A DNA stretch of 64,000 bases. Source: a virus. Location of the stretch: IMG/VR virus record IMGVR_UViG_3300028025_000090; one strand, written 5' to 3'. A program made the position numbers and the translations under genes. Below the pieces are notes generated by a model. The model had not been told where the DNA came from. It made no database searches and saw nothing but the letters and a program-made list of their open reading frames with translations. Below, piece by piece: positions 4,446 to 19,465 of this stretch. The first letter of the stretch is position 1; every line of letters begins with the position of its first letter.

Positions 4446-4643
4446 ATGATGAAGATCGTCAAACTCGACATGGAGCATGTCAATAAAGGAACTCCCACAC
4501 ATGAACTTCCTGTTATCTTCAAAGGTAATAAGAAGCAATGTGAAGGTTTACTCAAACGCTATCAATTTGTAGAAGAAAGCAATCTCTATGGAGGTTACTG
4601 GAACGACGAAGAACAAAACAGTTATTTTATTATACCAGCATGA
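4446..4643 (+). CDS. Hypothetical protein
   Basis: ATG 6 nt after TAAAAT of motif. Confidence 0.7.
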   Translation: MMKIVKLDMEHVNKGTPTHELPVIFKGNKKQCEGLLKRYQFVEESNLYGGYWNDEEQNSYFIIPA

Positions 4644-4852
4644 AAAGACTCACTAAAGAAGAAATAGAACGATTCGCAACTGATTCCACAAACAAGGATG
4701 CTGTATGGAATTTCCTTGGCACTGCTCATCACTGTGGCAATTATGTCAATGCGGTTGCCAATCTGTTAGACGATGCGGCATTGTATGGTTGGAACAATTT
4801 GACTGTGATGGCAATCTATGAGGGATTGAAATACGCAAATTTAAAAAACTAG
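4640..4852 (+). CDS. Hypothetical protein
   Basis: ATGA overlap with upstream ORF; ends NLKN* in motif. Confidence 0.7.
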   Translation: MKRLTKEEIERFATDSTNKDAVWNFLGTAHHCGNYVNAVANLLDDAALYGWNNLTVMAIYEGLKYANLKN

Positions 4853-4866
4853 ACTACACTTGGGAC

Positions 4867-5412
4867 ATGACAACGACACGAAAAGTAATCGAATCAATCG
4901 ATCTTGAAAAACACGGGCAAGAAGTCCATGGAAATGAGGATCTTTGTAATGTATTTGGTATCTACGAATACTTATATTTTGATGAACGGATCAAAATGGT
5001 GTTTGTTCGCCCTCATCTTTGCACAGACTCTTGGGTTGGTGTTAGAGCATACTTTCTTGATGGAGAATTCGTAGCAATCTCCTCACAAGTTGGTCGAAAA
5101 TGGGATGAAGAATTTAAATTCGTCTCCAACGAAGCAGCAATGAAAGTTAAAGATTATGTATTGTCTTTCGTAGAACCTCGATACGATATTAGCATTGCTG
5201 ATGATCTGGATGCCGAAATTGATGATTTTTATACCGTTGAGTATGCTGAACAAATTCTACACAAGCATGGTATATATCAAGGAGAACGTGTTGCAATCAA
5301 ACGCAAGCATAGAAATTGGAATGATTTTTACACTGCAACGATTATGGTGAATGTAAAAGAATGCGATGTGGATTGTCGCGAAATTCAATTGGCTTACGTC
5401 GATCTTTCTTGA
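4867..5412 (+). CDS. Phage hypothetical protein
   Basis: 181-aa ORF after motif. Confidence 0.8.
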   Translation: MTTTRKVIESIDLEKHGQEVHGNEDLCNVFGIYEYLYFDERIKMVFVRPHLCTDSWVGVRAYFLDGEFVAISSQVGRKWDEEFKFVSNEAAMKVKDYVLSFVEPRYDISIADDLDAEIDDFYTVEYAEQILHKHGIYQGERVAIKRKHRNWNDFYTATIMVNVKECDVDCREIQLAYVDLS

Positions 5413-5434
5413 AAAACTAGAATACAATTGAGAT

Positions 5435-5581
5435 ATGACAGCGCAAAGAAATCCAATCAATGGTAGTATCACGATCACCACGATTAAATTCAAACGACTG
5501 ATCACAAGGACTTTCTACGATTATACGATGGACGAAGCATTGGAAGAATTCAAAAGCTATCTTAAATCTCTGAAAAAATGA
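5435..5581 (+). CDS. Short hypothetical protein (48 aa)
   Basis: ATG 6 nt after motif hexamer; translated by hand. Confidence 0.6.
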   Translation: MTAQRNPINGSITITTIKFKRLITRTFYDYTMDEALEEFKSYLKSLKK

Positions 5582-5817
5582 AAAACAAATTTACAACCCA
5601 AGAAGTGTGGCGATACGTGGAAGGATTCATGTCTAGCCAATCGAATAGTCAAGAGCTATCCATGAATGAAATCCTTTCCATGCTGAAAAATGCGTTGGCA
5701 TGTATCGAAGATGGTGATGATGGTCTTGTTGCTTATCTTGATCGCATGGAATACTACAGGAATATTCAGTTGGAACAGATGGTAAGAGTATCTTCTTCGA
5801 TAAAAACTAAAGCATAA
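5578..5817 (+). CDS. Hypothetical protein
   Basis: ATGA overlap with upstream ORF. Confidence 0.7.
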   Translation: MKNKFTTQEVWRYVEGFMSSQSNSQELSMNEILSMLKNALACIEDGDDGLVAYLDRMEYYRNIQLEQMVRVSSSIKTKA

Positions 5818-5824
5818 TCGGGAC

Positions 5825-6010
5825 ATGGAAAATTATTCAAAGATTGAAAAACCAATCGAAGCTACTTTATACAAGAAAAACAAACCACCAGTATCTTGTT
5901 GTGTCGTGGGAATCAAATTAACTAGTTTGGGTATTATGTTGGAAGTAATGTCGTCTTATGGATTAGAAATGGTTAATCCTGATGATGTCATTCAGAATTT
6001 TAAAAACTAA
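5825..6010 (+). CDS. Hypothetical protein
   Basis: After motif; ends NFKN*. Confidence 0.7.
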   Translation: MENYSKIEKPIEATLYKKNKPPVSCCVVGIKLTSLGIMLEVMSSYGLEMVNPDDVIQNFKN

Positions 6011-6024
6011 AGCATAATTAGGAT

Positions 6025-6234
6025 ATGATGACATACTCACTGAATCTTGAAAATTGGGGACATTATCCTCAAGCTGAAAATATGTTAGGTCGTTACATCG
6101 AAGAGCAATCCAATGGTCTTTACAACGAAGAACATCGTAAAGTATTTCATAACAAAAAAATTAGCAAGCTGAAACAAGAGAAGATACGCGCATTTTCTGA
6201 TGCATTGCATCGCACTCAATTTGGCGCACCTTAA
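6025..6234 (+). CDS. Hypothetical protein
   Basis: After motif. Confidence 0.7.
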   Translation: MMTYSLNLENWGHYPQAENMLGRYIEEQSNGLYNEEHRKVFHNKKISKLKQEKIRAFSDALHRTQFGAP

Positions 6235-6255
6235 AAACTAGAGCATAATCAACAC

Positions 6256-6474
6256 ATGACAATTAAAAGCGTTCTCATTTGGCCAGAAGAAATTTGTTTG
6301 GGGTGGCATTCATCCGCAGAAAACAAATCAGAAGATACCCACTATTCTCAATCAGCAGCAGAAGCAATCTGTATGATGCTAATCCGCAAAGGATTTGGTT
6401 GTGATGGTAAGGTGTTCCCTCTAAACGCCAGAGTCGAAATCGATGGCGAGGTCGCATGGCAGTGGAAAGATTAA
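6256..6474 (+). CDS. Hypothetical protein
   Basis: After motif. Confidence 0.7.
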   Translation: MTIKSVLIWPEEICLGWHSSAENKSEDTHYSQSAAEAICMMLIRKGFGCDGKVFPLNARVEIDGEVAWQWKD

Positions 6475-6495
6475 AAACTAGAATATACTTAGGAC

Positions 6496-6846
6496 ATGAC
6501 AGGACGGGACATGACAGGAGAACAAAATGAATTCATTAAAAATCATTTCTTCAGAAATTATGATGATCATGGTTGGGATAATATCGCACAGAAGCTTCTC
6601 AAAGATGGGAAATGTATTGTTGCGGGAAATAGCAAATTGTGGCATGGTGGTGTGGGTAACTTTATCAAATGCACCCCTGCTGAAGATGCTATTGGTTGTT
6701 CTTTACTAACATTCGATAAAGAATCTTTTTTACAATCGGTATGGGTCAAAGAGCAAGTTGAATACTATTTGAAAGAATTGACACATCAAATTGATTCTTT
6801 ACGAGATGAGCGATATGCAATCGAGAATCTACTATTAAAAAACTAG
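6496..6846 (+). CDS. Hypothetical protein
   Basis: After motif; ends LLKN*. Confidence 0.75.
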   Translation: MTGRDMTGEQNEFIKNHFFRNYDDHGWDNIAQKLLKDGKCIVAGNSKLWHGGVGNFIKCTPAEDAIGCSLLTFDKESFLQSVWVKEQVEYYLKELTHQIDSLRDERYAIENLLLKN

Positions 6847-6860
6847 AATATACTTGGGAC

Positions 6861-7031
6861 ATGACAAGAGACGAATTACTACCAATCATTGAAAAGATGG
6901 AACAATACGGTGGAAGCTTTGCGAAATCGCTGGCAGTTGCCATGCGTTATGCTGATTCAAACAATCTTCAGCGCATTGTGAATGCCTTCCCCGAAATGAT
7001 TGAAAGCTACTCAGAATTTTTAAAAAACTAA
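6861..7031 (+). CDS. Short hypothetical protein (56 aa)
   Basis: After motif; YGGSFAKSLAVAMRYADSNN; ends FLKN*. Confidence 0.7.
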   Translation: MTRDELLPIIEKMEQYGGSFAKSLAVAMRYADSNNLQRIVNAFPEMIESYSEFLKN

Positions 7032-7045
7032 ATTAGAATAATAAC

Positions 7046-7342
7046 ATGAACATCGACAACATCGAAAAAGCATTATTTATCAAACAAAGAATTGACAATA
7101 ACAACATCGCAATTAAAAAAATTGATTCTCTCCTCGCGAAATATCCTAATGGAAACTCCGATGGTAAGTCATTCAATGGAGATGGTAAAATTTACGGTCT
7201 TCATTTGGGAGAGTATAAAGATGGTAGTGGAATTTCGATTGAACTTACTGGTTCCTTGATTCAAACCCAATTATTGGAAAATGCGATGCGATTATTGGAA
7301 GCTCAAATCGAAAATGATATCAAAGTTATCGAATCTCTATAA
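7046..7342 (+). CDS. Hypothetical protein
   Basis: After motif. Confidence 0.75.
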   Translation: MNIDNIEKALFIKQRIDNNNIAIKKIDSLLAKYPNGNSDGKSFNGDGKIYGLHLGEYKDGSGISIELTGSLIQTQLLENAMRLLEAQIENDIKVIESL

Positions 7343-7365
7343 AAACTAGAATACACTAAAAGCAC

Positions 7366-7500
7366 ATGAAATACATCTATCGAATCTGGAACTTCTTTTC
7401 CCCACCTGCTACTCCCACCTATGGTTGGAAAATCCTTGAACAACGGTCTTGGCTAGATAAACAAGTCCAAGAACAATTATTGAAACAAAGAGAATATTGA
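7366..7500 (+). CDS. Short hypothetical protein (44 aa)
   Basis: After motif; translated by hand. Confidence 0.5.
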   Translation: MKYIYRIWNFFSPPATPTYGWKILEQRSWLDKQVQEQLLKQREY

Positions 7501-7501
7501 T

Positions 7502-7684
7502 ATGACAAATCAGGCAAAAATAAAACAATTGGTGAAGAATGTGGAAGAACGTTCTCGTGAATACAATGGTGGAGACATCTGTTATCCTTTCATTGTTGGT
7601 TGGTTGGAGAGTGCAATGACAAATATTCTGGAGTATAACAGATCACTTGATTCAGAACTGGAAAAATCAAAATTTAAAAACTAA
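7502..7684 (+). CDS. Hypothetical protein
   Basis: Coupled to upstream ORF; ends KFKN*. Confidence 0.7.
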   Translation: MTNQAKIKQLVKNVEERSREYNGGDICYPFIVGWLESAMTNILEYNRSLDSELEKSKFKN

Positions 7685-7698
7685 AATATAATTACATT

Positions 7699-8079
7699 AT
7701 GACAATTGCCAAACAATTAAAGATCAAAGAATTTCCATTTGAAATCAAAGATTCCAATGGTAAAGAGATTTACTGGGAGGACTCCAATGGATATTGGTCA
7801 AAGCGTGAATTCGATTCCAAGGGTAATCGGATTTACTTCGAGAACTCCTATGGATTCTGGGAAAAGCGTGAATACGATTCCAAGGGTAATAAGATTTACT
7901 TTGAGGACTCCGATGGATATTGGGTAAAACGTGAATTCGATTCCGAGGGTAAAGAGATTTACTACGAGGACTCCAAGGGAAAAATCATTGACAATCGTAC
8001 CAAAACGGAAATCCAAAAAGCCATCGAACTCTTGACAAAAGAAGGATTGCTGGTAGATGGAAAGATTCTTAAAAACTAA
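7699..8079 (+). CDS. 21-aa-repeat protein, paralogue 1 (3 units)
   Basis: MTIAKQLKIKEFPFEIKDS head, xxIYxExSxGxWxKRExDSxG units, KAIELLTKEGLLVDGKILKN tail. Confidence 0.9.
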   Translation: MTIAKQLKIKEFPFEIKDSNGKEIYWEDSNGYWSKREFDSKGNRIYFENSYGFWEKREYDSKGNKIYFEDSDGYWVKREFDSEGKEIYYEDSKGKIIDNRTKTEIQKAIELLTKEGLLVDGKILKN

Positions 8080-8093
8080 ATTACAATTACATT

Positions 8094-8474
8094 ATGACAA
8101 TTGCTAAACAATTAAAAATCAAAGAATTTCCATTTGAAATCAAAGATTCCGATGGTAATCAGATTTACTGGGAGAACTCCAGTGAATTCTGGGCAAAGCG
8201 TGAATTCGATTCCAAGGGTAAAGAGATTTACTGGGAGACATCCGATGGAGCTTGGATAAAGCGTGAATTCGATTCCGAGGGTAATCGGATTTACTACGAG
8301 AACTTCAAGGGATATTGGGAAAAACGGAAATACGATTCCAATGGTAAAGAGATTTACTGGGAGACTTCCAATGGAGTAATCATTGATAATCGTCCTAAAA
8401 CAGATGTGCAGAAAGCCATCGAACTCCTCACAAAAGAAGGATTGATCGTGGATGGAAAGATTCTTAAAAACTAG
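8094..8474 (+). CDS. 21-aa-repeat protein, paralogue 2 (3 units)
   Basis: Same head, tail and unit. Confidence 0.9.
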   Translation: MTIAKQLKIKEFPFEIKDSDGNQIYWENSSEFWAKREFDSKGKEIYWETSDGAWIKREFDSEGNRIYYENFKGYWEKRKYDSNGKEIYWETSNGVIIDNRPKTDVQKAIELLTKEGLIVDGKILKN

Positions 8475-8488
8475 CGTAATATAACGAC

Positions 8489-8722
8489 ATGGTAACTGAT
8501 AAACAGTTGATTCAATGGGCAAGACACAGATGTGCAAGCAAAAATAGCTCTCCTGAACACGAACTATTTGCTGAAATTACATCACGATACGAAGCGTCTC
8601 TATACATTTTGGATAATGTTTCTCGACATTGTTTGATGTTTAGCAATGATCGCAAGATTTTCATGGAAAATCTTATAATTTGGGCTAAAAAATATAATAA
8701 TATACCACATGCCCAAGATTAA
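8489..8722 (+). CDS. Hypothetical protein
   Basis: After motif. Confidence 0.65.
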   Translation: MVTDKQLIQWARHRCASKNSSPEHELFAEITSRYEASLYILDNVSRHCLMFSNDRKIFMENLIIWAKKYNNIPHAQD

Positions 8723-8832
8723 AATATATCTCGATACAAACCGAGCTAAGGGATTCCCAATCTCTGAAAAGAATCGTAAGCGGTCTTTTTTGTATAGACT
8801 TTTACGAAAGATTTGGTAAGTATCATAATAAC

Positions 8833-8927
8833 GAGGGTGTACCAGAACGCACTTCTAATGCGTGGACGTTTAAATATACTGTAATTGGATATGTCCTATG
8901 TAGGTTCGAATCCTATCATCCTCGCCA
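8833..8927 (+). ncRNA. tRNA-like RNA, anticodon UCU (Arg), no D-arm, enlarged extra arm
   Basis: Acceptor GAGGGTG/CATCCTC + G-CCA; anticodon arm ACGCA-CTTCTAA-TGCGT; T-arm GTAGG-TTCGAAT-CCTAT; only 7 nt between acceptor and anticodon stems. Confidence 0.75.
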
Positions 8928-8928
8928 T

Positions 8929-9846
8929 TTATTTCCTGATAAAATATCCTCTAGGTGGGTAATCTACAATACCATATGATCTACACCACTTTCTAATGGC
9001 ATTATCAGACACTTCATATTTTTTTCCTATTTTCGTGAATGGTAATTCCCATAGTAAATTCTCCAATTCTTCTTTACTAGGTTTTATTCGATGTGAATGT
9101 TGTTTGATTGCAGCACATTGATTACACCTACAAGCTGTTTTGGATATATCAATACCACAATCAATACAACATTTAACCTTCTTTGTTATTGGGATATAAT
9201 TAAAATAATCAAATTCAACTTTAACATTCGCATTTGATAACTTATCTATAAAATCACCCCACTTATCTAAATTGAAACATGCTGAATAATGAATCTCATA
9301 TACATCCCATCCATTAGCTTCTAACAAATCATGTCTTTCCTGATAGTAAGCTTTCAATGTTCCATCTCTTTCATAATGCTGATTACCATTGATTTCTAAT
9401 GCTATCATCTTATCAGGTAATGCTATATCAATAGAAAACGATCTACTATCAATTTCTGGTTGATACTCTTCTATATATGATATATTCAATTGTGTTAGAA
9501 ATTCTTTTACTTTCTCACAAGGTTTTGATTTGAACTTGTCTTTATTTCTCCATGGATGTTTATCAGGATTATCTTTTAACCATTGCTTTCTCTTCTCTGA
9601 TAGATTCCTTTTTGTTTCATCTGTATGTTTTTTTCTTATGTTGATATTTTCATTGACGATGAACAATTTTTGTTCTCTCGCATTTTTAAGTGCTGCATAT
9701 GGTAATTTATATTCTTTCCTTAATTTCGACATTGTAACGCCTCTATCGTGTAACTCTTGAATATGATTCCAGTCGTATCTATCTTCCAATTTACCCCATC
9801 GCAACTCATTCATGATTTTTGCTCTATCTTTATCAATCGAACTCAT
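8929..9846 (-). mobile_element. Free-standing homing endonuclease (NUMOD3-like motif + PD-(D/E)XK DUF559/Vsr-like domain + Zn ribbon + HTH); start revised from 9927
   Basis: RKKHTDETKRNLSEKR; FSIDIALPDKMIALEINGNQHY; CIDC...CNQC; TAAATA-N5-ATG upstream; opposite strand to array, between two tRNA-type genes. Confidence 0.75.
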
Positions 9847-9939
9847 ATTATTATTTATCTCCAATGTTAATATTTTCACTCTATCCAGTAAATAAAGATA
9901 TTGACATTCATAAAAACTAGAATACACTTTACATACAAT

Positions 9940-10011
9940 GCGCTTGAAGCATATCGGTCATGCAGCCGTCTCATAAACGGCAGAAAGCAGGTTCAACTCC
10001 TGTCGGGCGTA
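9940..10011 (+). tRNA. tRNA with CAU anticodon (Met or Ile2)
   Basis: D-stem GCAT/ATGC, anticodon arm GCCGT-CTCATAA-ACGGC, T-arm GCAGG-TTCAACT-CCTGT; weak acceptor with G-U pairs; no CCA; bounded by two array motifs. Confidence 0.8.
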
Positions 10012-10045
10012 CTAATTTATTAAAAAACTAGATTACAATCAGGAC

Positions 10046-10363
10046 ATGACAATTGCACAGCAACTTAAAATCAAAGAATTTCCATTTAAAATCAAAGATT
10101 CCGAGGGTAATCTGATTTACTCTGAGAACTTCAGTGGATATTGGGTAAAGAGTGAATACGACTCCGATGGTAATAAGATTTACTTTGAGAATTCCGATGG
10201 ATTCTGGGTAAAACGTGAATACAATTCCGAGGGTAATCGGATTTACTATGAATCTTCCTATGGAACAATCGTTGATAATCGCCCTAAAACGGAAATCCAA
10301 AAAGCCATTGAACTTCTCACGAAAGAGGGATTGATCGTAGATGGTAAGATTCTTAAAAACTAA
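10046..10363 (+). CDS. 21-aa-repeat protein, paralogue 3 (2 units)
   Basis: Same head, tail and unit. Confidence 0.9.
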   Translation: MTIAQQLKIKEFPFKIKDSEGNLIYSENFSGYWVKSEYDSDGNKIYFENSDGFWVKREYNSEGNRIYYESSYGTIVDNRPKTEIQKAIELLTKEGLIVDGKILKN

Positions 10364-10377
10364 AATATACTTGAGAC

Positions 10378-10557
10378 ATGACAACACAAGAAATTAACGA
10401 TCTGGAAAGCACATTTGATAATGTGGCAATTGAAATTTTCGATGCTCTACGTGATCATCCTGACTATCTTTCGATTAAAGTTAAATTCGATTCAATGCAA
10501 ACAATGATGCAGAAAGCTATCGGAGAAAAATTTCCTGATAGTTGGATGGCACAATAA
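10378..10557 (+). CDS. Short hypothetical protein (59 aa)
   Basis: After motif; translated by hand. Confidence 0.65.
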   Translation: MTTQEINDLESTFDNVAIEIFDALRDHPDYLSIKVKFDSMQTMMQKAIGEKFPDSWMAQ

Positions 10558-10571
10558 AAAACTAAAATACT

Positions 10572-10925
10572 ATGGGATTATTCAGTTGGAAAACACAAGA
10601 CACAGATCGCTCAATCCCCTGCGAGGGAGCAAGCAGACCTACTTTCAAAGTGGTGATGCACGACAACAACGGTAAAAAATGGATTGAAGATTGTTATGAG
10701 GGTTACGGTGTTTTTGGAGGAAAGGATTACTACGAACTTCTAGCAGAAATGAATGGAGAAGAACGGAGTGATTTAGAATCAAGAGAGGACGGTATCAACA
10801 TCGCATTTGGGAAAAAACCATTCATTGCGCCCAACCTAACAGAAACTGAGGATTGGGAATGGATCGACGAGAAACCTAAAAATTGTGAATACCAAGGGTA
10901 TTTCTACGACGACGAAGATTTTTAA
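10572..10925 (+). CDS. Acidic phage hypothetical protein
   Basis: MGLFSWKTQDT...YEGYGVFGGKDYYELLAEMN; after motif. Confidence 0.8.
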   Translation: MGLFSWKTQDTDRSIPCEGASRPTFKVVMHDNNGKKWIEDCYEGYGVFGGKDYYELLAEMNGEERSDLESREDGINIAFGKKPFIAPNLTETEDWEWIDEKPKNCEYQGYFYDDEDF

Positions 10926-10950
10926 TTAAAAACTAATATATCATAATAAC

Positions 10951-11112
10951 ATGCAATCTATCATCAAGCTTATTATAGCACCTTCAATTTATGGCGTATT
11001 GTCAATCATTCATGCGATTGTTGGCACTCCATACAATTTCCAAAATGTTGCGCTAACAATCATTCTATCAATCGTGGTGTTTTTGGCTATTGATAAAATC
11101 TTTGGGAATTAA
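10951..11112 (+). CDS. Short membrane protein (53 aa)
   Basis: After motif; two hydrophobic stretches. Confidence 0.55.
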   Translation: MQSIIKLIIAPSIYGVLSIIHAIVGTPYNFQNVALTIILSIVVFLAIDKIFGN

Positions 11113-11134
11113 AAAACTAGAATACAATTGAGAC

Positions 11135-11506
11135 ATGCGATTCAATAACACCGCAGAATTCCCTCAGTGGGTCAAGGATTACAAATTCTCACAGGATACC
11201 TATCCAACAGGGTATCAAGAGATTGCCAACGAATTGAAGGTCAAGGGTAACGAAATGGCTAAAAAATGGCGTGGTGTTGGCTTGAAAGAAATGCCTTTCA
11301 CACGATGTGAAATTGACAACAAGTTGGGATGTGATTACGATACGTATGAGACTTATCAAGTCTTTTGTGCATCCAAAGGTTCTCGCCCATCAGAGTGGGA
11401 TTATTTACATGATTCTGATGATCAGTATGACTTTTGCCGAACTGGTCATTTTGAAGAGGCACAAATAGGAGAATGGTATCTGGTAGTGGGATTTGATTTT
11501 GATTAA
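11135..11506 (+). CDS. Hypothetical protein
   Basis: After motif. Confidence 0.75.
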   Translation: MRFNNTAEFPQWVKDYKFSQDTYPTGYQEIANELKVKGNEMAKKWRGVGLKEMPFTRCEIDNKLGCDYDTYETYQVFCASKGSRPSEWDYLHDSDDQYDFCRTGHFEEAQIGEWYLVVGFDFD

Positions 11507-11529
11507 AAACTAGACTAATATAAACGCAT

Positions 11530-11817
11530 ATGGAATACGAATTTGTAGAAGAAGCTTTCGCAGCAAAAAAACGGATTGAAAAGAATTCAATATTACATTC
11601 TCTATTACTGGAGAGAGTCAACGAAAGTGAGAAATTCTCACCTATAGAAAGAAAATATCAATTTGGACAAGACTTTGGTTCTCTAACAATTAGCGATGGT
11701 CACGATTTTCATCTTGATTTGGGTCAAACAGGGTGTAATAAAACAATCATCGACGCAATTCTGGATATTCTGGAGAAGAAAGTGGTAGAAGACAAGGAAT
11801 TCATCGAAAATATTTAA
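11530..11817 (+). CDS. Hypothetical protein
   Basis: After motif. Confidence 0.75.
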   Translation: MEYEFVEEAFAAKKRIEKNSILHSLLLERVNESEKFSPIERKYQFGQDFGSLTISDGHDFHLDLGQTGCNKTIIDAILDILEKKVVEDKEFIENI

Positions 11818-11839
11818 AAAACTAGAATACAATTGAGCC

Positions 11840-12061
11840 ATGACATTACAAGAACATATCGCTTACCAAGAAGACAAGATTGATCGCCTTTATGAGCAGT
11901 ATTATCAGACTCAGGGTTATATTCACAAAGAAACAAGTATCAATTCTCATTTGAAAGCGGGAACTTTATTGGAATTGGTGAAACAACTCTATTCTTTAGA
12001 GATTGAGTTACGCTCTGCCATTGACACTCGCATGACACTTATCAATATTAAAAGCAAATAA
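11840..12061 (+). CDS. Hypothetical coiled-coil protein
   Basis: After motif. Confidence 0.7.
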   Translation: MTLQEHIAYQEDKIDRLYEQYYQTQGYIHKETSINSHLKAGTLLELVKQLYSLEIELRSAIDTRMTLINIKSK

Positions 12062-12085
12062 AAACTAGAATACAATTACACCATC

Positions 12086-12421
12086 ATGAAAGTTACTACA
12101 GAAAACGTTATCAATGCCATCGTTCACGAACAAATCAGCCATCGTGGAGGTGGAGTAGAGATTGATCTGAGCCAATTCGGATTCCCCGATGGTTCTCTCA
12201 TGTCTGCTTATCAAAATTACCTTGGTGGTGGTATGCTGGGAGCAATCCAAAGCGATCACAACATGTTCCGCATGGAATTCACCAAAGCACAAGAGAAAAA
12301 GATTGAGAACTTGTCAGAGATTCTCAAGCGTTATCTCCATGATCAAACGAATCATGAGGATGATGAATGGGAAAGCGCAACATATTTCCAAAATCAAATG
12401 CGACCAGCATCAGCTTATTAA
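12086..12421 (+). CDS. Phage hypothetical protein
   Basis: After motif; MSAYQNYLGGGMLGAI. Confidence 0.75.
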   Translation: MKVTTENVINAIVHEQISHRGGGVEIDLSQFGFPDGSLMSAYQNYLGGGMLGAIQSDHNMFRMEFTKAQEKKIENLSEILKRYLHDQTNHEDDEWESATYFQNQMRPASAY

Positions 12422-12445
12422 AAACTAGATTACAATTACACCATC

Positions 12446-12691
12446 ATGAAATACTTACCGACTATCGACCTCTGGAATCCCGCTGTGAATTATGCTGTTC
12501 GCACAGGACAATTGAAATTGCAGACAGGACAATGGGTAAAATGTGGCAATGAGAAGAAATCCCGCTTCGTTTGTGTAAAGCCTAAGAGCGGCACAATCTG
12601 GGCAAGCCATTGGCAGGGAGATAGCAAAAGCACCAATGAGCGTTTCAAAACGTTGTTGGAAGCGTCCAAAGGAATTAAAAAACTAGCTTAA
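12446..12691 (+). CDS. Hypothetical basic protein
   Basis: After motif; KLQTGQWVKCG...SRFV. Confidence 0.75.
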   Translation: MKYLPTIDLWNPAVNYAVRTGQLKLQTGQWVKCGNEKKSRFVCVKPKSGTIWASHWQGDSKSTNERFKTLLEASKGIKKLA

Positions 12692-12700
12692 TATTGAGGC

Positions 12701-12874
12701 ATGACAAAAGAATTAACTGAAAAATACCTTGAAACAGCAATCAGAAGAAAATCTTATCTTCTTGATCGTATCTCAAAAGTGAGAGATATTCTTGAAGAAT
12801 TGGAAAACGATCTGGAAGATGTGGAGAATGAAATCCAAGACTTGCAAAGCGTTTTAAAAACTAAATTAAAATAA
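12701..12874 (+). CDS. Short coiled-coil protein (57 aa)
   Basis: After motif; translated by hand MTKELTEKYLE... Confidence 0.6.
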   Translation: MTKELTEKYLETAIRRKSYLLDRISKVRDILEELENDLEDVENEIQDLQSVLKTKLK

Positions 12875-12878
12875 TCAC

Positions 12879-13163
12879 ATGGCAAACAAATACATCGTCG
12901 ATTTAGAATTGACAAATTGTGGAGTAGAGAAAGTCGCTACTAGACTGGTATCTGCTAAGGATGAAACGGAAGCATGTATGGAAGCATTGCTGAATGAAAT
13001 CCACAATGCCATTGGTAATGGAGCAGAATGGGATGAAGATGATGAAGGTGAACCAACATACGAAAAAATCCTTGATTTTAATGGTGAATGGGTTTATACT
13101 GTATATAAAGTGACTCACATCGAATCAGAAGAAGAATACAAGATTCTGGAAAAGTATCTGTAA
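12879..13163 (+). CDS. Acidic hypothetical protein
   Basis: After motif; D/E-rich. Confidence 0.75.
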   Translation: MANKYIVDLELTNCGVEKVATRLVSAKDETEACMEALLNEIHNAIGNGAEWDEDDEGEPTYEKILDFNGEWVYTVYKVTHIESEEEYKILEKYL

Positions 13164-13188
13164 TTAAAAACTAAATTACAATAATCAC

Positions 13189-13506
13189 ATGACAATCGCC
13201 AAACAATTAAAAATTAAAGAATTTCCATTTGAAATCAAAGATTCCAATGGTAATCGGATTTACTACGAGAACTCCGATGGATATTGGGTAAAGCGTGAAT
13301 ACGATTCCAAGGGTAATAAGATTTACTACGAGGATTCCAAGGGATATTGGGCAAAACGGAAATACGATTCCAAGGGTAAAGAGATTTACTTTGAGAACTC
13401 CTATGGAACAATCATTGACAATCGCCCCAAAACAGAAATCCAAAAAGCCATCGAACTTCTAACGAAAGAGGGATTGATTGTGGATGGTAAGATTCTTAAA
13501 AACTAA
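13189..13506 (+). CDS. 21-aa-repeat protein, paralogue 4 (2 units)
   Basis: Same head, tail and unit. Confidence 0.9.
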   Translation: MTIAKQLKIKEFPFEIKDSNGNRIYYENSDGYWVKREYDSKGNKIYYEDSKGYWAKRKYDSKGKEIYFENSYGTIIDNRPKTEIQKAIELLTKEGLIVDGKILKN

Positions 13507-13520
13507 ATTATAATTTACAC

Positions 13521-13670
13521 ATGGACACGCAAGATATTATTACACGACTGAGAGACATCTCATTGGATGCTGATTGTGCTACAGGTTCATTCAAAAATGA
13601 TTCTCTGGTAGAAGCATTGGAAGACATTGTTCTCTCTATCGAACTACTGATCAATGATATTAAAAACTAA
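13521..13670 (+). CDS. Short acidic protein (49 aa)
   Basis: After motif; ends DIKN*. Confidence 0.6.
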   Translation: MDTQDIITRLRDISLDADCATGSFKNDSLVEALEDIVLSIELLINDIKN

Positions 13671-13692
13671 ATTAAAATAACGACACACTATT

Positions 13693-14172
13693 ATGGGACT
13701 AGACATGTATATTAAACGCACGAATCGCACCGATCACACAATCGAAGAATTGGAGGCGATTGACGACAACTGGGACATCAATCCAGAAAGCGAGGAAGTT
13801 GCACCTTTCCTACCTCTTCGTGAATATGAATTCTCCAAGGGTGCTTTTAGTATCTTTCATGAGGAAGCATATTGGCGCAAATTCAATGCTCTCCACAACT
13901 GGTTTGTCGAGCGTGTGCAAGATGGTATTGATAAGTGTCAGACATCAGAACTTCATAAAGAAACCTTTGTCGAGTTGTTGAACGATATTCAATCCGTCTT
14001 GGGTGGTGAAGTTGTCGAGGATTTAGAGCCTGTCTCTGGCTTCTTCTTCGGTTCTACTGAGAAAGACGAATGGTATTTTGAGAGTATGCGTAAAGCAAAA
14101 GAGAAAATCGAAAGTCTCATCAAGAATACTGACTTCAAGAAGTATCGCTTATTCTACCATGCAAGTTGGTGA
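13693..14172 (+). CDS. Phage hypothetical protein (MGLDMY type)
   Basis: MGLDMY...YWRKFNALHNWFV...GFFFGST...YHASW. Confidence 0.8.
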   Translation: MGLDMYIKRTNRTDHTIEELEAIDDNWDINPESEEVAPFLPLREYEFSKGAFSIFHEEAYWRKFNALHNWFVERVQDGIDKCQTSELHKETFVELLNDIQSVLGGEVVEDLEPVSGFFFGSTEKDEWYFESMRKAKEKIESLIKNTDFKKYRLFYHASW

Positions 14173-14204
14173 TGCTCGATAAAAACTAGATTACAATTGA
14201 GCTT

Positions 14205-14414
14205 ATGAAAAAGCAATATATCATAATCCAATTGGAAACCAAAGAGAGTCAAGTTCCTGATGGTTATCACATGACTACGAGAACAGAGTATTTTGGTGTT
14301 ACTAATGGTTATCCTATCACTTTCGATACACTGGAAGAGGCGGAAAAAGAATTGGCAGCGTGGATTGGTAAATGGTCTAAATACACGATCATTCCCCTTT
14401 ACACTCAAGATTAA
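14205..14414 (+). CDS. Hypothetical protein
   Basis: After motif. Confidence 0.7.
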   Translation: MKKQYIIIQLETKESQVPDGYHMTTRTEYFGVTNGYPITFDTLEEAEKELAAWIGKWSKYTIIPLYTQD

Positions 14415-14435
14415 AAACTAGAATAGAATCAGGAC

Positions 14436-14822
14436 ATGCAAAAGATTAGCACAACACAATTCGGAGAAGTCAAAGTCACCATGTTTCTCTCCAACACCAA
14501 AAAACCTACATGGTCAAACGGTGATCATGATCATTATCGAGTGAAGATTGGACATGAAGGAAAATCCCACACTTTCGATTTTTGGGGTAGTATTGCCAAT
14601 AAAGAAAATAATCAATTGGAGAATGTAAAAAATGCTCTGAATTGCTTTGCCAGTGATTGCGATCTGGGAGAGGGAGAATTCAAAGACTTCATCTGGAAAA
14701 CAGGTGGATTCGAAGATTCGAAGAATTTGAAAATCTTCAAAGCTTGTCAGAAATCCCATAAAGCAATGAAACGCTTGAACATTCCCAACAATGTTTCCCT
14801 TGGATGGTTGGACGGAGAATAA
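14436..14822 (+). CDS. Phage hypothetical protein
   Basis: After motif. Confidence 0.75.
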   Translation: MQKISTTQFGEVKVTMFLSNTKKPTWSNGDHDHYRVKIGHEGKSHTFDFWGSIANKENNQLENVKNALNCFASDCDLGEGEFKDFIWKTGGFEDSKNLKIFKACQKSHKAMKRLNIPNNVSLGWLDGE

Positions 14823-14875
14823 AAACTAGATTAGAATTTGTATCACCGCAGGACACCAACAACGAAACATAAGAC

Positions 14876-15055
14876 ATGAACATCACCATTACATCGAATG
14901 CAATCAATGACGGCAAACAGCACGTTCTTAAAGTGCCTTTTCTTGGGACATTTACCGTCGATCAAAAAGACCGTAATCGCGCCATCGCTTACGTATTGAG
15001 TAATAATAAGAGTGATTCGCTTTACTTTTTACGTAAATTGAGTATTGAATGCTAA
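14876..15055 (+). CDS. Short hypothetical protein (59 aa) with a longer (about 35-nt) leader
   Basis: Translated by hand MNITITSN...IEC*. Confidence 0.55.
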   Translation: MNITITSNAINDGKQHVLKVPFLGTFTVDQKDRNRAIAYVLSNNKSDSLYFLRKLSIEC

Positions 15056-15095
15056 TAGAAAATAACCCAATTAAAAACTAAAATACAATAATCAC

Positions 15096-15539
15096 ATGAC
15101 AATAGCACAGCAACTTAAAATTAAAGAATTTCCATTTGAAATCAAAGATTCCATGGGTAATACGATTTACTTGGAGGACTCCAAGGGATATTGGTTTAAG
15201 TGTGAATACGATTCTAATGGTAAAGAGATTTACTATGAGCAATCTGATGGATATTGGGCAAAACGTGAATACGATTCCAAGGGTAATCGGATTTACTGGG
15301 AGAACTTTAGTGGAGCTTGGATTAAACATGAATACGATTCCGATGGTAACAATACTTACTACGAGAACTCCAATGGATATTGGGCAAAGCGTGAATACGA
15401 TTCTGATGGTAATCAGATTTACTGTGAGAACTCCGATGGAACAATCATTGACAATCGCCCCAAAACGGAAATCCAAAAAGCTATCGAACTTCTCACGAAA
15501 GAAGGATTGATCGTAGATGGAAAGATTCTTAAAAACTAA
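15096..15539 (+). CDS. 21-aa-repeat protein, paralogue 5 (4 units)
   Basis: 147 aa = 105 + 2x21. Confidence 0.9.
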   Translation: MTIAQQLKIKEFPFEIKDSMGNTIYLEDSKGYWFKCEYDSNGKEIYYEQSDGYWAKREYDSKGNRIYWENFSGAWIKHEYDSDGNNTYYENSNGYWAKREYDSDGNQIYCENSDGTIIDNRPKTEIQKAIELLTKEGLIVDGKILKN

Positions 15540-15553
15540 ATTACAATAATCAC

Positions 15554-15871
15554 ATGACAATAGCACAGCAACTTAAAATCAAAGAATTTCCTTTTGAAAT
15601 CAACGATTCCGAGGGTAATGAGATTTACTACGAGGACTCCGATGGATATTGGGTAAAACGTGAATACAATTCAAAGGGTAATCTGATTTACTTGGAGGAC
15701 TCCACTGGATATTGGGTAAAACGTGAATACGATTCCAATGGTAATGTGATTTACTACGAGAACTCCTATGGAACGATCCACGATAATCACCCCAAGACCG
15801 ATGTACAGAAAGCTATCGAACTCTTGACAAAAGAGGGATTGATCGTAGATGGTAAGATTCTTAAAAACTAA
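15554..15871 (+). CDS. 21-aa-repeat protein, paralogue 6 (2 units)
   Basis: Same head, tail and unit. Confidence 0.9.
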   Translation: MTIAQQLKIKEFPFEINDSEGNEIYYEDSDGYWVKREYNSKGNLIYLEDSTGYWVKREYDSNGNVIYYENSYGTIHDNHPKTDVQKAIELLTKEGLIVDGKILKN

Positions 15872-15885
15872 AATATAATTACATT

Positions 15886-16203
15886 ATGACAATAGCACAA
15901 CAACTGAAAATCAAACAGTTTCCTTTTGAAATCAAAGATTCCGAGGGTAATCGGATTTACTACGAGAACTCCTATGGATATTGGGCAAAACGTGAATACA
16001 ATTCAAAGGGTAATCTGATTTACTTGGAGGACTCCAAGGGATATTGGGTAAAACGTGAATACGATTCCAATGGTAATGTGATTTACTACGAGAACTCCGA
16101 TGGAACGATCCACGATAAACGTCCCAAAACAGATGTGCAAAAAGCCATTGAACTTCTCACGAAAGAAGGATTGCTGGTGGACGGTAAGATTCTTAAAAAC
16201 TAG
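15886..16203 (+). CDS. 21-aa-repeat protein, paralogue 7 (2 units)
   Basis: Same head, tail and unit. Confidence 0.9.
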   Translation: MTIAQQLKIKQFPFEIKDSEGNRIYYENSYGYWAKREYNSKGNLIYLEDSKGYWVKREYDSNGNVIYYENSDGTIHDKRPKTDVQKAIELLTKEGLLVDGKILKN

Positions 16204-16217
16204 AATACAATTAGGAC

Positions 16218-16490
16218 ATGGAAATTACATCCGATACAGATATTCTAACGGTCAAGAAAATCCTCAAATCAATGGGTTATAAAATGAAGACCAAAAGATT
16301 CTCATGGGGTAGAAATGTCATCTATCATCATATAGAATCGGGACAAGATAGAACTGGTAATGTATATACAAAAGAGACTATAGAAAAGTGGTTGCCATTG
16401 AATAGGTGGTTGACTGCGAACCAAGAAAATCTCCTTGTAATTGCTAGGAAAAATTGTCTTTATGGTATGTTAGAAGGTGCGACAAAATGA
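16218..16490 (+). CDS. Hypothetical protein
   Basis: After motif; flanked by a 30-bp direct repeat. Confidence 0.7.
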   Translation: MEITSDTDILTVKKILKSMGYKMKTKRFSWGRNVIYHHIESGQDRTGNVYTKETIEKWLPLNRWLTANQENLLVIARKNCLYGMLEGATK

Positions 16491-16532
16491 CACAGGTGGA
16501 ATCGAAATTAAAAACTAGAATACAATTAGGAC

Positions 16533-16709
16533 ATGGATACATTAGACTTTATTATGGCAGTAGAAGAAGGAAGCATGGACATGGACACTTTCGTGGAGAA
16601 TGTTCAGGACTTCGTGAACAGTGGAATCTGGAAATCTCTACAGGGATCATGGCAACGCATGGTTTATCAATGGGCTGAATCTGGATATTGTAATGTCGAT
16701 TCTCTCTAG
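16533..16709 (+). CDS. Short acidic protein (58 aa)
   Basis: After motif; SGIWKSLQGSWQR. Confidence 0.65.
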   Translation: MDTLDFIMAVEEGSMDMDTFVENVQDFVNSGIWKSLQGSWQRMVYQWAESGYCNVDSL

Positions 16710-16958
16710 CAGAAAATGCTTTAGCGGTGGTGAATCAACATGATTAAAAACATTGATAAATCAAGGAAAAATGGCGTGACAAAATGACGCACTTACTGCG
16801 ACAAAATGACACAGGGATAGACGGATATAGAAATAAAATAAAAAATAAATTAAACTTTTGGTAACATGGTAAAATCCTCTCCCTTGGTGGTTCTTGGGAG
16901 AGGTAAACCAATCCACGAAATAAAACACATTTAAAAACTAGCTTAAACTTTTGACATC

Positions 16959-17126
16959 ATGAAAAACATACTCACTATTTTAACATCTGCTGCTATCACA
17001 TTGTCTCCCACTTTTAGCCTTTGCGCGTTCTTCATCTATGGTGGAAGAAATGCAGTGTTCGATGCAATCTGCTTTCTGGTATTTGGAGCTACTTGCTACA
17101 CTCTCGCATTACTCCGACACAAGTGA
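16959..17126 (+). CDS. Short membrane protein (55 aa)
   Basis: After motif; hydrophobic. Confidence 0.55.
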   Translation: MKNILTILTSAAITLSPTFSLCAFFIYGGRNAVFDAICFLVFGATCYTLALLRHK

Positions 17127-17158
17127 AACGCATTTAAAAACTAGCTTAAACTGATACC

Positions 17159-17401
17159 ATGCTCAACATCACCATTGATCCGAAAGAAATCCGCGCTGAA
17201 TATCGTAAAGACCAAGGTGGTCGCGGATGGTTGTATATCTCAGTTCCTAACGGATGGGATGACGTATCGAAATTGTGCAAGAAAGTTCTCACGTATGATG
17301 GGCGAAAATTCCTTTACAGTGGATGGAATTCCGATAGAAACGATTGTTTCTTCAAGGAAGAACTGGTAGGAAGTTCCACGGTGGTAGCACGAATCAATTA
17401 A
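17159..17401 (+). CDS. Phage hypothetical protein
   Basis: After motif. Confidence 0.75.
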   Translation: MLNITIDPKEIRAEYRKDQGGRGWLYISVPNGWDDVSKLCKKVLTYDGRKFLYSGWNSDRNDCFFKEELVGSSTVVARIN

Positions 17402-17422
17402 AAACTAGAGTAAACTGATAAC

Positions 17423-17608
17423 ATGAAGACCTACATTATCACAGTAAAATCAATCGGATATGACACGATTGTCCTGCGAGTCAATGCATCAAATCTAACA
17501 TTTGCCAAATCCTATAAAACAGAAGCAATTCAAAAATTTGCAGAAGTGAATGACATTTGTTTTGCCGATGCTAAAATGTTAGGTTCCATCTCCATCCTTA
17601 AAAACTAG
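17423..17608 (+). CDS. Hypothetical protein
   Basis: After motif; ends ILKN*. Confidence 0.7.
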   Translation: MKTYIITVKSIGYDTIVLRVNASNLTFAKSYKTEAIQKFAEVNDICFADAKMLGSISILKN

Positions 17609-17622
17609 AATAAACTGATAAC

Positions 17623-17802
17623 ATGACAAGACAATACACCAATCAACTACTGGAAATGATCGACAACGGAATCCTTGATGCTGAAACGGTTCTCCGTTCG
17701 TGTCTCTCTTATATGTCCGAAGCAGAAGTGCAGGACATGGCAGAATCCGAGGGATTCATCGAAGAAGAGGAAGAGGACGAAGAAGAGGACGAAGAAGAGT
17801 AA
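17623..17802 (+). CDS. Short protein with poly-E/D tail (59 aa)
   Basis: After motif; ends EEEEEDEEEDEEE*. Confidence 0.7.
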   Translation: MTRQYTNQLLEMIDNGILDAETVLRSCLSYMSEAEVQDMAESEGFIEEEEEDEEEDEEE

Positions 17803-17811
17803 AATCCTCCC

Positions 17812-17902
17812 TCAGTCTCAATAAGGACATTTTCAGAATCCTTGTATCTACAATGAAAAAAGTCATTTTGCTCTAGGACTATTTGAATCTTATTGAGACT
17901 GA
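17812..17902. repeat. 91-bp element with 14-bp perfect terminal inverted repeats
   Basis: TCAGTCTCAATAAG (17812-17825) / CTTATTGAGACTGA (17889-17902). Confidence 0.75.
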
Positions 17903-17929
17903 AGTTAAAAACTAGCTTAAACTGATACC

Positions 17930-18100
17930 ATGACCACATCAGAACGCAACAGAGTCAAAATTCAATTGTATATTAAGAACAAAAAGATGTTTGCGTTGAC
18001 ATATGGAGGAGAAAAACTCTCTCCCATAATCGAAGAAATTCTTACGAATGAACTTGAAAAGGAAAATCCAAGAGACTTGGACACCTTATTATCCAATTAA
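17930..18100 (+). CDS. Short hypothetical protein (56 aa)
   Basis: After motif; translated by hand. Confidence 0.6.
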   Translation: MTTSERNRVKIQLYIKNKKMFALTYGGEKLSPIIEEILTNELEKENPRDLDTLLSN

Positions 18101-18119
18101 AAACTAGAATAAGATTTCA

Positions 18120-18222
18120 ACAGAGCGTCATCTAAATGCTAGGATTCTGGAACTGGGAGATATTCGTCTAAATTAGGACACCCGACATCAGACAATGAGA
18201 ATTTGCAACTCTCCGCTCTACC
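18120..18222 (+). ncRNA. Non-coding cassette, putative structured RNA
   Basis: Between two motifs, no ATG at the expected position; closed by AGAGCG/CGCTCT; contains tRNA D-arm-like CGTCTAAATTAGGACA. Confidence 0.45.
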
Positions 18223-18249
18223 TTTTAAAAACTAGAATAAACTGATACC

Positions 18250-18582
18250 ATGACCAACACCGACCTACAACAACCAAACGATCTATCAGACAAAGGCAAA
18301 CAAGCACATGCTGCAATCGTGGCATTTCTTGAGAAGCACAAGCTCACATACACAGGAGGATGCAAAGCGTTCTATTCCCCCAAAGAGTGGGAGGAAAGGA
18401 AAGAGGACTACGGATGCGATAGTGTGCTTGTCGTGGTGCATGATGGCGGCGATCACGGAGATGCTTTCTCTTATGATCGTGGGAATTACAAGATTCTTGA
18501 TAAGATGTATGAACTTCTGAAACCACTGGGATTTTACAGCGAACAATGCACCTGCTGGTATAGCGCAATCTACCTTGCTTAA
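18250..18582 (+). CDS. Phage hypothetical protein
   Basis: After motif; LVVVHDGGDH...CWYSAIY. Confidence 0.8.
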   Translation: MTNTDLQQPNDLSDKGKQAHAAIVAFLEKHKLTYTGGCKAFYSPKEWEERKEDYGCDSVLVVVHDGGDHGDAFSYDRGNYKILDKMYELLKPLGFYSEQCTCWYSAIYLA

Positions 18583-18606
18583 AAACTAAAATAAAATCAT
18601 AACGTC

Positions 18607-18888
18607 ATGAAAACAATCACATTACGCGAAGCATTTGAAATTCTTGAAAACGCCGCAGCAGTCATCATTGATGACACTGTAACATACCCAACACTTGATG
18701 ATTTAATTGGATCAGATGAAAACGAGTTCCTTCACATTGGCTGGGAGGTTGATGACTTAGGATACACCGCAATTTTTCAAGAAGGGGATAACCAATTCGT
18801 CAAAGTATCAGGATCGAGCCTTTTCATGGTAGATGATAGGGGGGAAGAAACACAAGTTTCTATTTTAATTCCTGCAAATCTTGCTTAA
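18607..18888 (+). CDS. Acidic hypothetical protein
   Basis: After motif. Confidence 0.75.
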   Translation: MKTITLREAFEILENAAAVIIDDTVTYPTLDDLIGSDENEFLHIGWEVDDLGYTAIFQEGDNQFVKVSGSSLFMVDDRGEETQVSILIPANLA

Positions 18889-18909
18889 AAACTAGACTAA
18901 CATTGAGCC

Positions 18910-19107
18910 ATGAAAGTTCGACCACTTGAAAATTACCGCCTGTATGGGACTGCTATTGTCCTTGACAACACGAAAGTTTACTCTGCTTCTCGTGCGGAGA
19001 ATCAGCCCAACTGGAAAGAAAAGGGATTGATTTTTGTGCATGAGTCAGATGATGATGATTGCGTAGGTATTCTTCTCTGTGCAGGGGAATACGAAGTTAA
19101 AAACTAG
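18910..19107 (+). CDS. Hypothetical protein
   Basis: After motif; ends EVKN*. Confidence 0.7.
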   Translation: MKVRPLENYRLYGTAIVLDNTKVYSASRAENQPNWKEKGLIFVHESDDDDCVGILLCAGEYEVKN

Positions 19108-19121
19108 ACTAACATTGAGCC

Positions 19122-19292
19122 ATGACAAAAGAACTACAAGAAAAACTAGAGGCTGCTCGCGCTGCTCGTGCTGCTGCTTATGCTGCTTATGTTGCTGCTC
19201 GCACTGATGCTGATGCTGCTCTTGATGCTTGGGCTGCTGCTGATGCTGCTTATGATGCTGCTCTTGCTGCTGCTGATGCTGTTAAAAACTAG
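19122..19292 (+). CDS. Ala-rich low-complexity protein, copy 1 (56 aa)
   Basis: MTKELQEKLEAARAARAAAYAAY...AVKN*; paralogue of 22721..22924. Confidence 0.7.
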   Translation: MTKELQEKLEAARAARAAAYAAYVAARTDADAALDAWAAADAAYDAALAAADAVKN

Positions 19293-19306
19293 ACTAACAT
19301 TGGGAC

Positions 19307-19465
19307 ATGAACCACCTCGTATTTATTATCCACAAAGGATTCGTAGCATATCGCATGAATGGTCAACAAGGTTCTCACCCTATCGGTGACGACACAGCGC
19401 AAAGCGTCATTGACTATCTCAAGAAAATGATCAAATTCAAAACATTCGAAATCATCAACCATTAA
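19307..19465 (+). CDS. Short hypothetical protein (52 aa)
   Basis: After motif; translated by hand. Confidence 0.6.
   Translation: MNHLVFIIHKGFVAYRMNGQQGSHPIGDDTAQSVIDYLKKMIKFKTFEIINH

Follow-up and report, generated by a model that had tools for sequence, protein, structure and literature searches.

A stretch of 64,000 nucleotides (nt) from an uncultured virus (IMG/VR record IMGVR_UViG_3300028025_000090; the whole stretch is referred to here as the window) carries, between positions 7,699 and 16,203, seven paralogous genes built from a 63-base-pair (bp) repeat, and modelling shows their products to be stand-alone mini YD-repeat proteins, each a one-sheet strip of Rhs-type beta-hairpins. The family to which they belong is large, unnamed and mainly phage-borne. 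We consider it reasonably probable that these mini YD-repeat paralogues have been diversified in the germline and that they form a repertoire of early cytoplasmic binders.

Results

Anatomy of the seven genes

The seven open reading frames (ORFs), all on the + strand and coding for 105, 126 or 147 amino acids (aa), are present where a sequence-only reading of the window had placed them. Paralogues 1 (7699..8079) and 2 (8094..8474, starting 14 nt past paralogue 1) have 126 aa and 4 units; paralogues 3 (10046..10363, directly downstream of a tRNA-Met gene), 4 (13189..13506), 6 (15554..15871) and 7 (15886..16203) have 105 aa and 3 units; and paralogue 5 (15096..15539) has 147 aa and 5 units. Pairwise identity among them is 73-89% (89% between paralogues 6 and 7), and their isoelectric points range from 4.7 to 9.1. 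The 14-aa head, MTIA(K/Q)QLKIK(E/Q)FPF, and the tail KAIELLTKEGL(L/I)VDGKILKN were found much as first described, copy 7 differing by a Q at residue 11, and the full tail comprises 28 aa, NRPKTEIQKAIELLTKEGLIVDGKILKN. The middle consists of 3, 4 or 5 units of 21 aa with the consensus xEYDSxGNxIYxExSxGxWxK, so that genes differ in length by exact 63-bp steps. End units are degenerate, the first beginning EIKDS and the last ending GTIID, and the number of units depends on how they are treated: the earlier count of 2, 3 or 4 per gene (18 in total) stands for complete, Trp-containing units and becomes 3, 4 or 5 (25 in total) with the degenerate end hairpins. A search with nhmmer and a DNA profile of the unit found exactly 25 units in the 64 kb, all within the seven genes. 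The residues that had been described as nearly fixed (D4, S5, G7, I10, Y11, E13, S15, G17, W19 and K21) are so: they hold in 21-25 of the 25 units, W19 and K21 excepted (18/25), since the seven terminal units carry I and D in their place. G7, Y11, E13 and S5 are invariant over the 25 units, and I10, G17, S15 and D4 nearly so.

Fold and family assignment

Models of paralogue 4 (3 units) and paralogue 5 (5 units) were made with AlphaFold2 on family alignments, with predicted local distance difference test (pLDDT) values of 92.8 and 93.5, respectively, and with capped ends at pLDDT 82-97. Both have a short N-terminal helix, two beta-strands per unit and then a helix with a mini hairpin, giving 7 strands in paralogue 4 and 11 in paralogue 5. 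The top Foldseek matches were RhsA (7q97; root-mean-square deviation (rmsd) 1.7 A over 61 columns), other Rhs cores, teneurins and Tc BC. VIA-align, which is independent of Foldseek and was run over 48,161 chains, placed paralogue 4 on the Rhs core 8qjb (Z 10.0, rmsd 1.5 A, 66 residues), and residues 13-120 of paralogue 5 on 108 contiguous residues (663-770) of the same structure (Z 13.8); the extra units of the longer protein therefore just lengthen a YD-type sheet with the period of the Rhs shell. Fold searches thus support the YD-like beta-hairpin scaffold suggested by the sequence-only reading. The MORN label that it offered alongside was not supported: Pfam MORN and MORN_2 were without a match at E<=1, the solved MORN1 reached only E 4.6-10, and there was no MORN chain among the top structural matches listed by VIA-align, which does not exclude weaker ones.

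The links to Rhs proteins in sequence profiles are weak: E 6.5e-4 for RhsA (7q97) and E 6e-5 for NCBIfam RHS_core, the latter at 20.9 bits against a curated cut-off of 2000. Pfam RHS_repeat (PF05593) did not match any of the seven proteins at E<=1, its best score, 11.2 bits, being in a related genome; it is present on 52% of the members of a neighbouring viral cluster of the ESM Atlas. Searches of the seven proteins against Pfam, PHROGs and NCBIfam gave nothing over a curated threshold. The motif Y-D-x-x-G-(R/N)-x-(I/L), in tandem hairpins of ~21 residues, is present in the 25 units and in 120 homologues. Cell-wall or glucan-binding repeats (CW_binding_1, TIGR04035) were not recovered either, TIGR04035 scoring 20-21.5 bits against a cut-off of 147.7 and glucansucrase chains matching at E 0.04-0.7. 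An identity as an Rhs polymorphic toxin or Tc BC cocoon was rejected, as the proteins have 105-147 aa, 7-11 strands, a helix and hairpin at the end and no further domain; with only 3-5 repeats in that length, a shell cannot close.

Size and distribution of the family

A word-index search returned 3,040 family proteins at E<=1e-3 (90% clusters), and an exhaustive search 2,820 clusters at 50% identity, of which 154 reached E<=1e-30. In these data the family is found almost only on viral contigs, and the names given to the homologues at source are "hypothetical protein" or clearly spurious labels. Two homologues (P0013 and P0048) carry a precomputed match to the Pfam accession PF27963; neither a description of the family nor a mention of that accession was found in the literature searched. 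The sole relative in an isolated phage is gp42 of Verrucomicrobia phage P8625 (YP_009221585.1; 152 aa, 46% identity, E 5e-22). The "bacterial" records are short contigs of Saprospirales and Bacteroidetes metagenome-assembled genomes (MAGs) and of single-cell genomes, and these family genes are probably phage DNA that was co-sorted or binned with the cells, which could hold hints on the hosts of the relatives. Among the single cells are two Marinimicrobia (SAR406) and one alphaproteobacterium (loci L028-L035, which include the MAG contigs).

At 114 further viral loci the family falls into length classes 21 aa apart (~83, 104, 126, 147 and 168 aa), with up to 15 family ORFs at one locus, and among homologues the same repeats are paired with different types of tail. 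Some proteins are much longer (P0121, P0124, P0126, P0171 and P0246; 233-1026 aa) and contain up to five complete head-repeat-tail modules, in some cases with the recurring linkers INESRINL and NENID; they could be genuine polyproteins, or adjacent genes called as one. In P0246, two family modules are joined to HAD_SAK_1. Two unrelated viral contigs have a family gene within a cluster of RNA-repair type: in L016 (4938-9662) it is flanked by an Rnl1-type RNA ligase and a metallophosphoesterase, with HAD_SAK_2 and a Pnk-like AAA_33 kinase upstream of it, and in L022 (3005-6543) it is one gene past Rnl1, in a cluster that also has a DNA ligase. An Rnl1 homologue was found at just 2 of the 114 loci and at no place in the window; a link with RNA repair is therefore not general, and we keep it as a hypothesis only.

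Variation and selection

Between paralogues, about eight unit positions vary (1, 6, 9, 12, 14, 16, 18 and 20), and the same positions vary in the 120 metagenomic homologues, with 13-17 residue types at positions 20 and 9. The codon lists drawn up earlier for two of these positions were correct: GAG, CGG, AAG, CTG, CAG, GTG and ACG, to which one AAT is added, at position 9 (the earlier reader's position 2), and TAC, TGG, TTT, TTG, TAT, TTC, TCT and TGT at position 12 (the reader's position 5). Position 12 takes only aromatic residues or Leu. Position 9 keeps G as its third base although its first two bases are saturated, a pattern that is hard to explain by drift.

Estimates by the Nei-Gojobori method bear out that the variation is restricted to particular codons and for the most part changes the amino acid. 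The head (dS 1.08, dN/dS 0.04) and the tail (dS 0.68, dN/dS 0.08) are under strong purifying selection, and the variable codons of the units have a dN of 0.62-0.77 and a dN/dS of 1.3-1.8, an excess to be read with the ascertainment discussed below. The dS of conserved unit codons is just 0.19-0.27, and the same contrast between head or tail and units is seen in most other contigs. Over columns invariant in amino acid, the mean pairwise codon difference is 0.319 in head and tail versus 0.121 in the units (Mann-Whitney p 0.003, Fisher p 0.035). Unit codons are specific to their position (GGT in 25/25 at position 7, GGA in 24/24 at 17, TAC in 25/25 at 11, TAT in 13/13 at 18), and several oppose the usage of the phage: TCC makes up 78% of Ser codons in the units versus 14-16% in the phage, TAC 71% versus 24-35%, and CGG 38% of Arg codons versus 2-4%, which makes translational selection an unlikely cause. 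The same choices recur in most related contigs, with the exception of the two most distant. Since the units are at least as old as the genes and yet have a lower dS, either homogenisation (concerted evolution) or constraint at the nucleotide level is called for.

Other causes of the synonymous conservation were considered and rejected. Structure of the mRNA is not significant (z-scores -0.5 and -1.7), and the inverted repeat that head and tail form in mRNA folds has no covariation. Antisense or overlapping ORFs through the repeats are by-products of the repeats, and there are none in copies 6 and 7, because TCA codons in these give antisense stops.

Strand alternation would put positions 1, 9 and 20 on the face of the sheet with Y3, Y11 and E13, and positions 12 and 14 on the opposite face with E2, I10, W19 and K21; positions 6, 16 and 18 would be in turns.

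Recombination, turnover and stability

Units had been described as shuffled between copies, which is clear in relatives and only weakly visible in the window. Here near-identical units are found only in the tandem copies 6 and 7, whose units 2-3 match at 61-62 of 63 nt, and one copy is therefore a recent tandem duplicate of the other. The broader proposal that unit-level recombination aids diversification is supported by unit duplication and mosaics in relatives, and by the 21-aa length classes on about 100 viral contigs. The relative IMGVR_UViG_3300021247_000425 has 13 copies in 28 kb, with near-identical units (61/63, 60/63 and 59/63) at different positions of one gene or between genes; in this lineage unit position 5, S in 25/25 units of the window, has changed throughout to A, T, S or I, all with NCC codons. 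Two homologues (P0002 and P0003) equal copy 1 through residue 78 and are divergent beyond, and a third (P0018) is a mosaic of the first unit of copy 1 with a unit resembling unit 2 of copy 2.

A close relative, IMGVR_UViG_3300020042_007317 (loci L002 and L004), is syntenic with the window. Against L002, flanking genes have 90-100% DNA identity and unit regions 73-85%; in the positional counterpart of copy 3 the pN of the units is 0.195, compared with 0.00-0.07 in its immediate neighbours. This relative has one family copy where the window has copies 1 and 2, and two blocks of the window, 10378-13163 and 13693-15055, stand there in reverse order (6695-9973), with family copies at the junctions. 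The paralogues appear to serve as recombination substrates by which early cassettes are reshuffled. In another relative, a 90-aa family copy (L005, 8078-8347) has a last unit that runs into an unrelated tail (…GQSLTIVLRLMSNKQLRS); it is probably frameshifted and decaying, consistent with birth-and-death turnover.

Each paralogue is nonetheless stable once it exists. Ten more orthologues of copy 3 are on record (93-100% identity), and the eleven sequences, which come from different records, show no change at any variable position, their differences being confined to a few other sites. These sites occur in all four combinations, which implies recombination among the orthologues. The invariance of the variable positions means that the diversity is fixed between paralogues and kept within each, and is not remade every generation. 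In a collection of 15 billion proteins, six of the seven proteins are on record exactly, each on 3-4 contigs (paralogue 1 on 3); the exact protein of paralogue 5 (15096-15539) is not in that collection, for which a different gene call or a difference in sequence may be responsible.

Genomic setting and intergenic motif

The window is part of a T4-like myovirus, as it encodes Gp23 (E 3e-83), a T4-type portal (Portal_T4, E 1e-90) and a gp15-like tail sheath stabiliser, together with both chains of ribonucleotide reductase, ThyX and ten tRNAs. The isolates nearest to its major capsid protein are cyanophages, at only ~32% identity, and no isolated phage was matched by the DNA of the region. About 55 small ORFs, all in one direction, fill the first 20 kb (1-20 kb); the family genes are in this small-cassette region, and the structural genes of the window are at 42-64 kb. 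A minus-strand gene for an HNH-type homing endonuclease (8929-9927) and the tRNA-Met gene (9940-10012) split the array between paralogues 2 and 3, and the corresponding place in L002 has no such insert. None of ten neighbouring ORFs in the window has a Pfam family. Two other early ORFs (866-1360 and 18250-18582) diverge strongly between the window and L002, far above their neighbours (56% and 79% aa identity; pN 0.29 and 0.12), so that fast evolution among cassettes is not confined to the YD family.

All seven copies, and most other cassettes, are preceded by the motif TTAAAAACTA[AG]AWTAYAAT-N6-ATG, with 41 matches versus 0.7 expected. Its AAAACTA core occurs 59 times on the + strand of positions 1-20000, in 44 of them with an ATG exactly 22 nt downstream. 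All seven motifs of the family are on the + strand and have the AAAACTA core with an ATG 22 nt downstream: those of paralogues 1 (7674..7698), 3 (10021..10045), 4 (13164..13188) and 5 (15071..15095), and those of paralogues 2 (8069..8093), 6 (15529..15553) and 7 (15861..15885), which double as the last codons (L-K-N-stop) of paralogues 1, 5 and 6, respectively. More generally, the stop codon of the upstream ORF, and often also its K-N, comes from the motif, and the extreme C-terminus is therefore partly set by DNA that is common to unrelated neighbours. The motif has no Shine-Dalgarno sequence; it includes a -10-like hexamer that ends 6 nt upstream of the start codon, which would fit leaderless transcripts.

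Discussion

We favour the view that the seven genes are a germline-diversified set of small binding strips. In the models each strip is built from 21-aa units of two strands each, started by the 14-aa head and ended by the helix and mini hairpin, and its length changes by one unit (63 bp) per step. The variable positions have changed in the germline by point substitution under diversifying selection, and homologous recombination between units and between copies has brought gain and loss of units, mosaic alleles and swaps of gene blocks. A paralogue, once formed, keeps its own residues across samples. The cassette array, the promoter-like motif and analogy suggest that the genes are made early, and a cytoplasmic location is likely because the proteins are without a signal peptide. 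Each paralogue is predicted to bind its own partner through its variable side chains, the most likely targets being host factors or defence proteins. The constant ends may share a common role, such as capping or docking. The family genes are, in short, probably early-made binding proteins. A more specific, immunity-like form of the proposal, in which the paralogues would be a recombination-shuffled germline library of single-sheet inhibitors of diverse host effectors (e.g., RNA-cleaving defence toxins), with one target per paralogue and with head and tail docking to a common partner, seems to us quite unlikely.

Several observations weigh against the proposal of a binder repertoire. The dN/dS above 1 of the variable codons is inflated by ascertainment, as these codons were partly picked for varying, and pairwise dS is hard to read under recombination. 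The low dS of the units is accounted for only in part, and both concerted evolution and constraint at the nucleotide level remain as candidate causes. The variable positions seem to be spread over both faces of the sheet and the edges of the turns, with no one obvious binding face. Finally, the timing suggested here draws on analogy and on the cassette motif, and a simple scan found no enrichment of canonical sigma-70 -35/-10 promoters (41 versus 39.3 expected).

The pattern of variation had also been likened to the work of a diversity-generating retroelement (DGR), or other targeted hypermutation, in which a reverse transcriptase copies a template repeat into the units with adenine-specific errors. 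The conserved third base (NNG at position 9 and mostly NNT at position 16) does recall such systems, as does the unusual conservation of synonymous sites in units where some codons are saturated. The components and the signature are missing: as had been noted, the window has no reverse transcriptase (no RVT_1 in its 28 large ORFs, the 64 kb being part of a genome of ~194 kb); six related virus records, of which three are 90% complete or more, are likewise without RVT_1; and the 64-kb window has no unit-like copy outside the seven genes that could be a template. High-entropy columns, classed by consensus base, are 11/23 for A, 4/10 for C, 6/14 for G and 7/16 for T, which is no adenine enrichment, and the units have many invariant adenines (GAA, AAT, ATT, TAC, GGA), about half of the consensus adenines being conserved. 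The targets would be 25 units spread over 7 genes of unequal length, in a YD fold that is neither C-type lectin nor Ig, and the variable residues are constant across the 11 copy-3 orthologues from different records. The DGR likeness is thus not supported and is largely refuted; we judge targeted mutagenesis extremely improbable, the variation arising without it. Equally improbable is an artefact by which repeat mis-assembly inflated or scrambled fewer true copies. Repeats of 63 bp are difficult for short-read assemblers and the exact copy 5 sequence is missing from the protein collection, but the flanks of every copy are unique and its units are distinct (5 or more differences per 63 nt, copies 6 and 7 excepted), the six exact proteins recur on 3-4 contigs, and there are syntenic copies on independent contigs and orthologues in other records.

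Two further explanations accept the genes as real and differ on what they do. In one, a recombination-prone cassette simply drifts, its variable positions being unconstrained and exposed, and any job lies in the head and tail. The ready change in the number of copies and units would agree with this, as would the frameshifted copy in a relative (L005, 8078) and the apparent placement of variable positions on both faces and in turns. Drift should not, however, give a dN at the variable codons (0.62-0.77) that exceeds the dS of the same units (0.3-0.6), nor a position 9 with a fixed G after two saturated bases, nor a position 12 held to aromatic residues or Leu; and the strict retention of variable residues in orthologues points to purifying selection after divergence. 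We consider neutral drift unlikely. In the other, head and tail would link strips by their edges, within or between paralogues, to build a larger YD sheet or shell, as a container or a component of the virion or a scaffold. In every solved relative the YD repeats close into a shell, both edge strands of the strip are free, family copies are often adjacent, and up to five head-repeat-tail modules stand in one natural chain (P0121, P0124). This assembly role is nevertheless very unlikely in our estimation, given that the modelled ends are capped (N-helix, C-helix and hairpin) with pLDDT 82-97, that the genes lie in the small-cassette region away from the structural genes at 42-64 kb, and that the isolated relative sits in the replication module of a 33-kb siphovirus.

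A binder repertoire of mini YD-repeat strips would be of interest in several ways. YD repeats are known from large shells that carry toxins, of which they build the wall; here they make up a free-standing strip of adjustable length, which occurs in seven copies in this phage and in 13 or more in relatives, and the family runs to thousands of proteins without a name. If the strips are binders, they would constitute a new natural scaffold for molecular recognition and a widespread, so far unread part of the dealings between aquatic phages and their hosts. Within one gene, the ends are synonymously saturated, the scaffold of the repeats is homogenised and codons for the surface change fast; this suggests that the family is a clean viral example of concerted evolution among repeats acting together with diversifying selection, though constraint at the nucleotide level also remains.

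The closest known systems are the Rhs/YD shells, including the Rhs effectors of the type VI secretion system (8QJB, 8UXT, 8QJA and 7Q97), TcB-TcC (4IGL) and the teneurins. They have in common with the phage family the hairpin period of ~21 residues and the xYDxxGNxIY motif, and the backbone of the family superposes on them over 66-108 contiguous residues (Z 10.0-13.8). Unlike these shells, the phage proteins lack an Rhs core or plug, an autoproteolysis motif and a toxin domain, and they are products of cassette genes in many diverged copies, presumably cytoplasmic. The gene for gp42 of P8625 is likewise among small genes of a non-structural (replication/recombination) module, although that phage differs in being a 33-kb siphovirus, with two matching places in its record. 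Proteins varied by DGRs, such as Mtd of Bordetella phage BPP-1, are alike in their fixed scaffold, few hypervariable codons and conserved third bases, whereas the phage family has a different fold and its variation is germline-fixed and stable across samples. Single-layer sheets such as the central sheet of OspA of Borrelia (2FKG, 6KK9) also consist of consecutive hairpins with both faces exposed and gave weaker structural matches; OspA has no sequence relation to the family and no repeats of fixed period, and is a lipoprotein with globular ends. Germline binder repertoires of ankyrin, leucine-rich and MORN-variant repeats, as well as YwqK-type immunity proteins, combine a modular scaffold and a variable surface with many paralogues and a repeat number set by recombination; their folds differ from that of the phage family, and the likeness is an analogy of how such proteins work.

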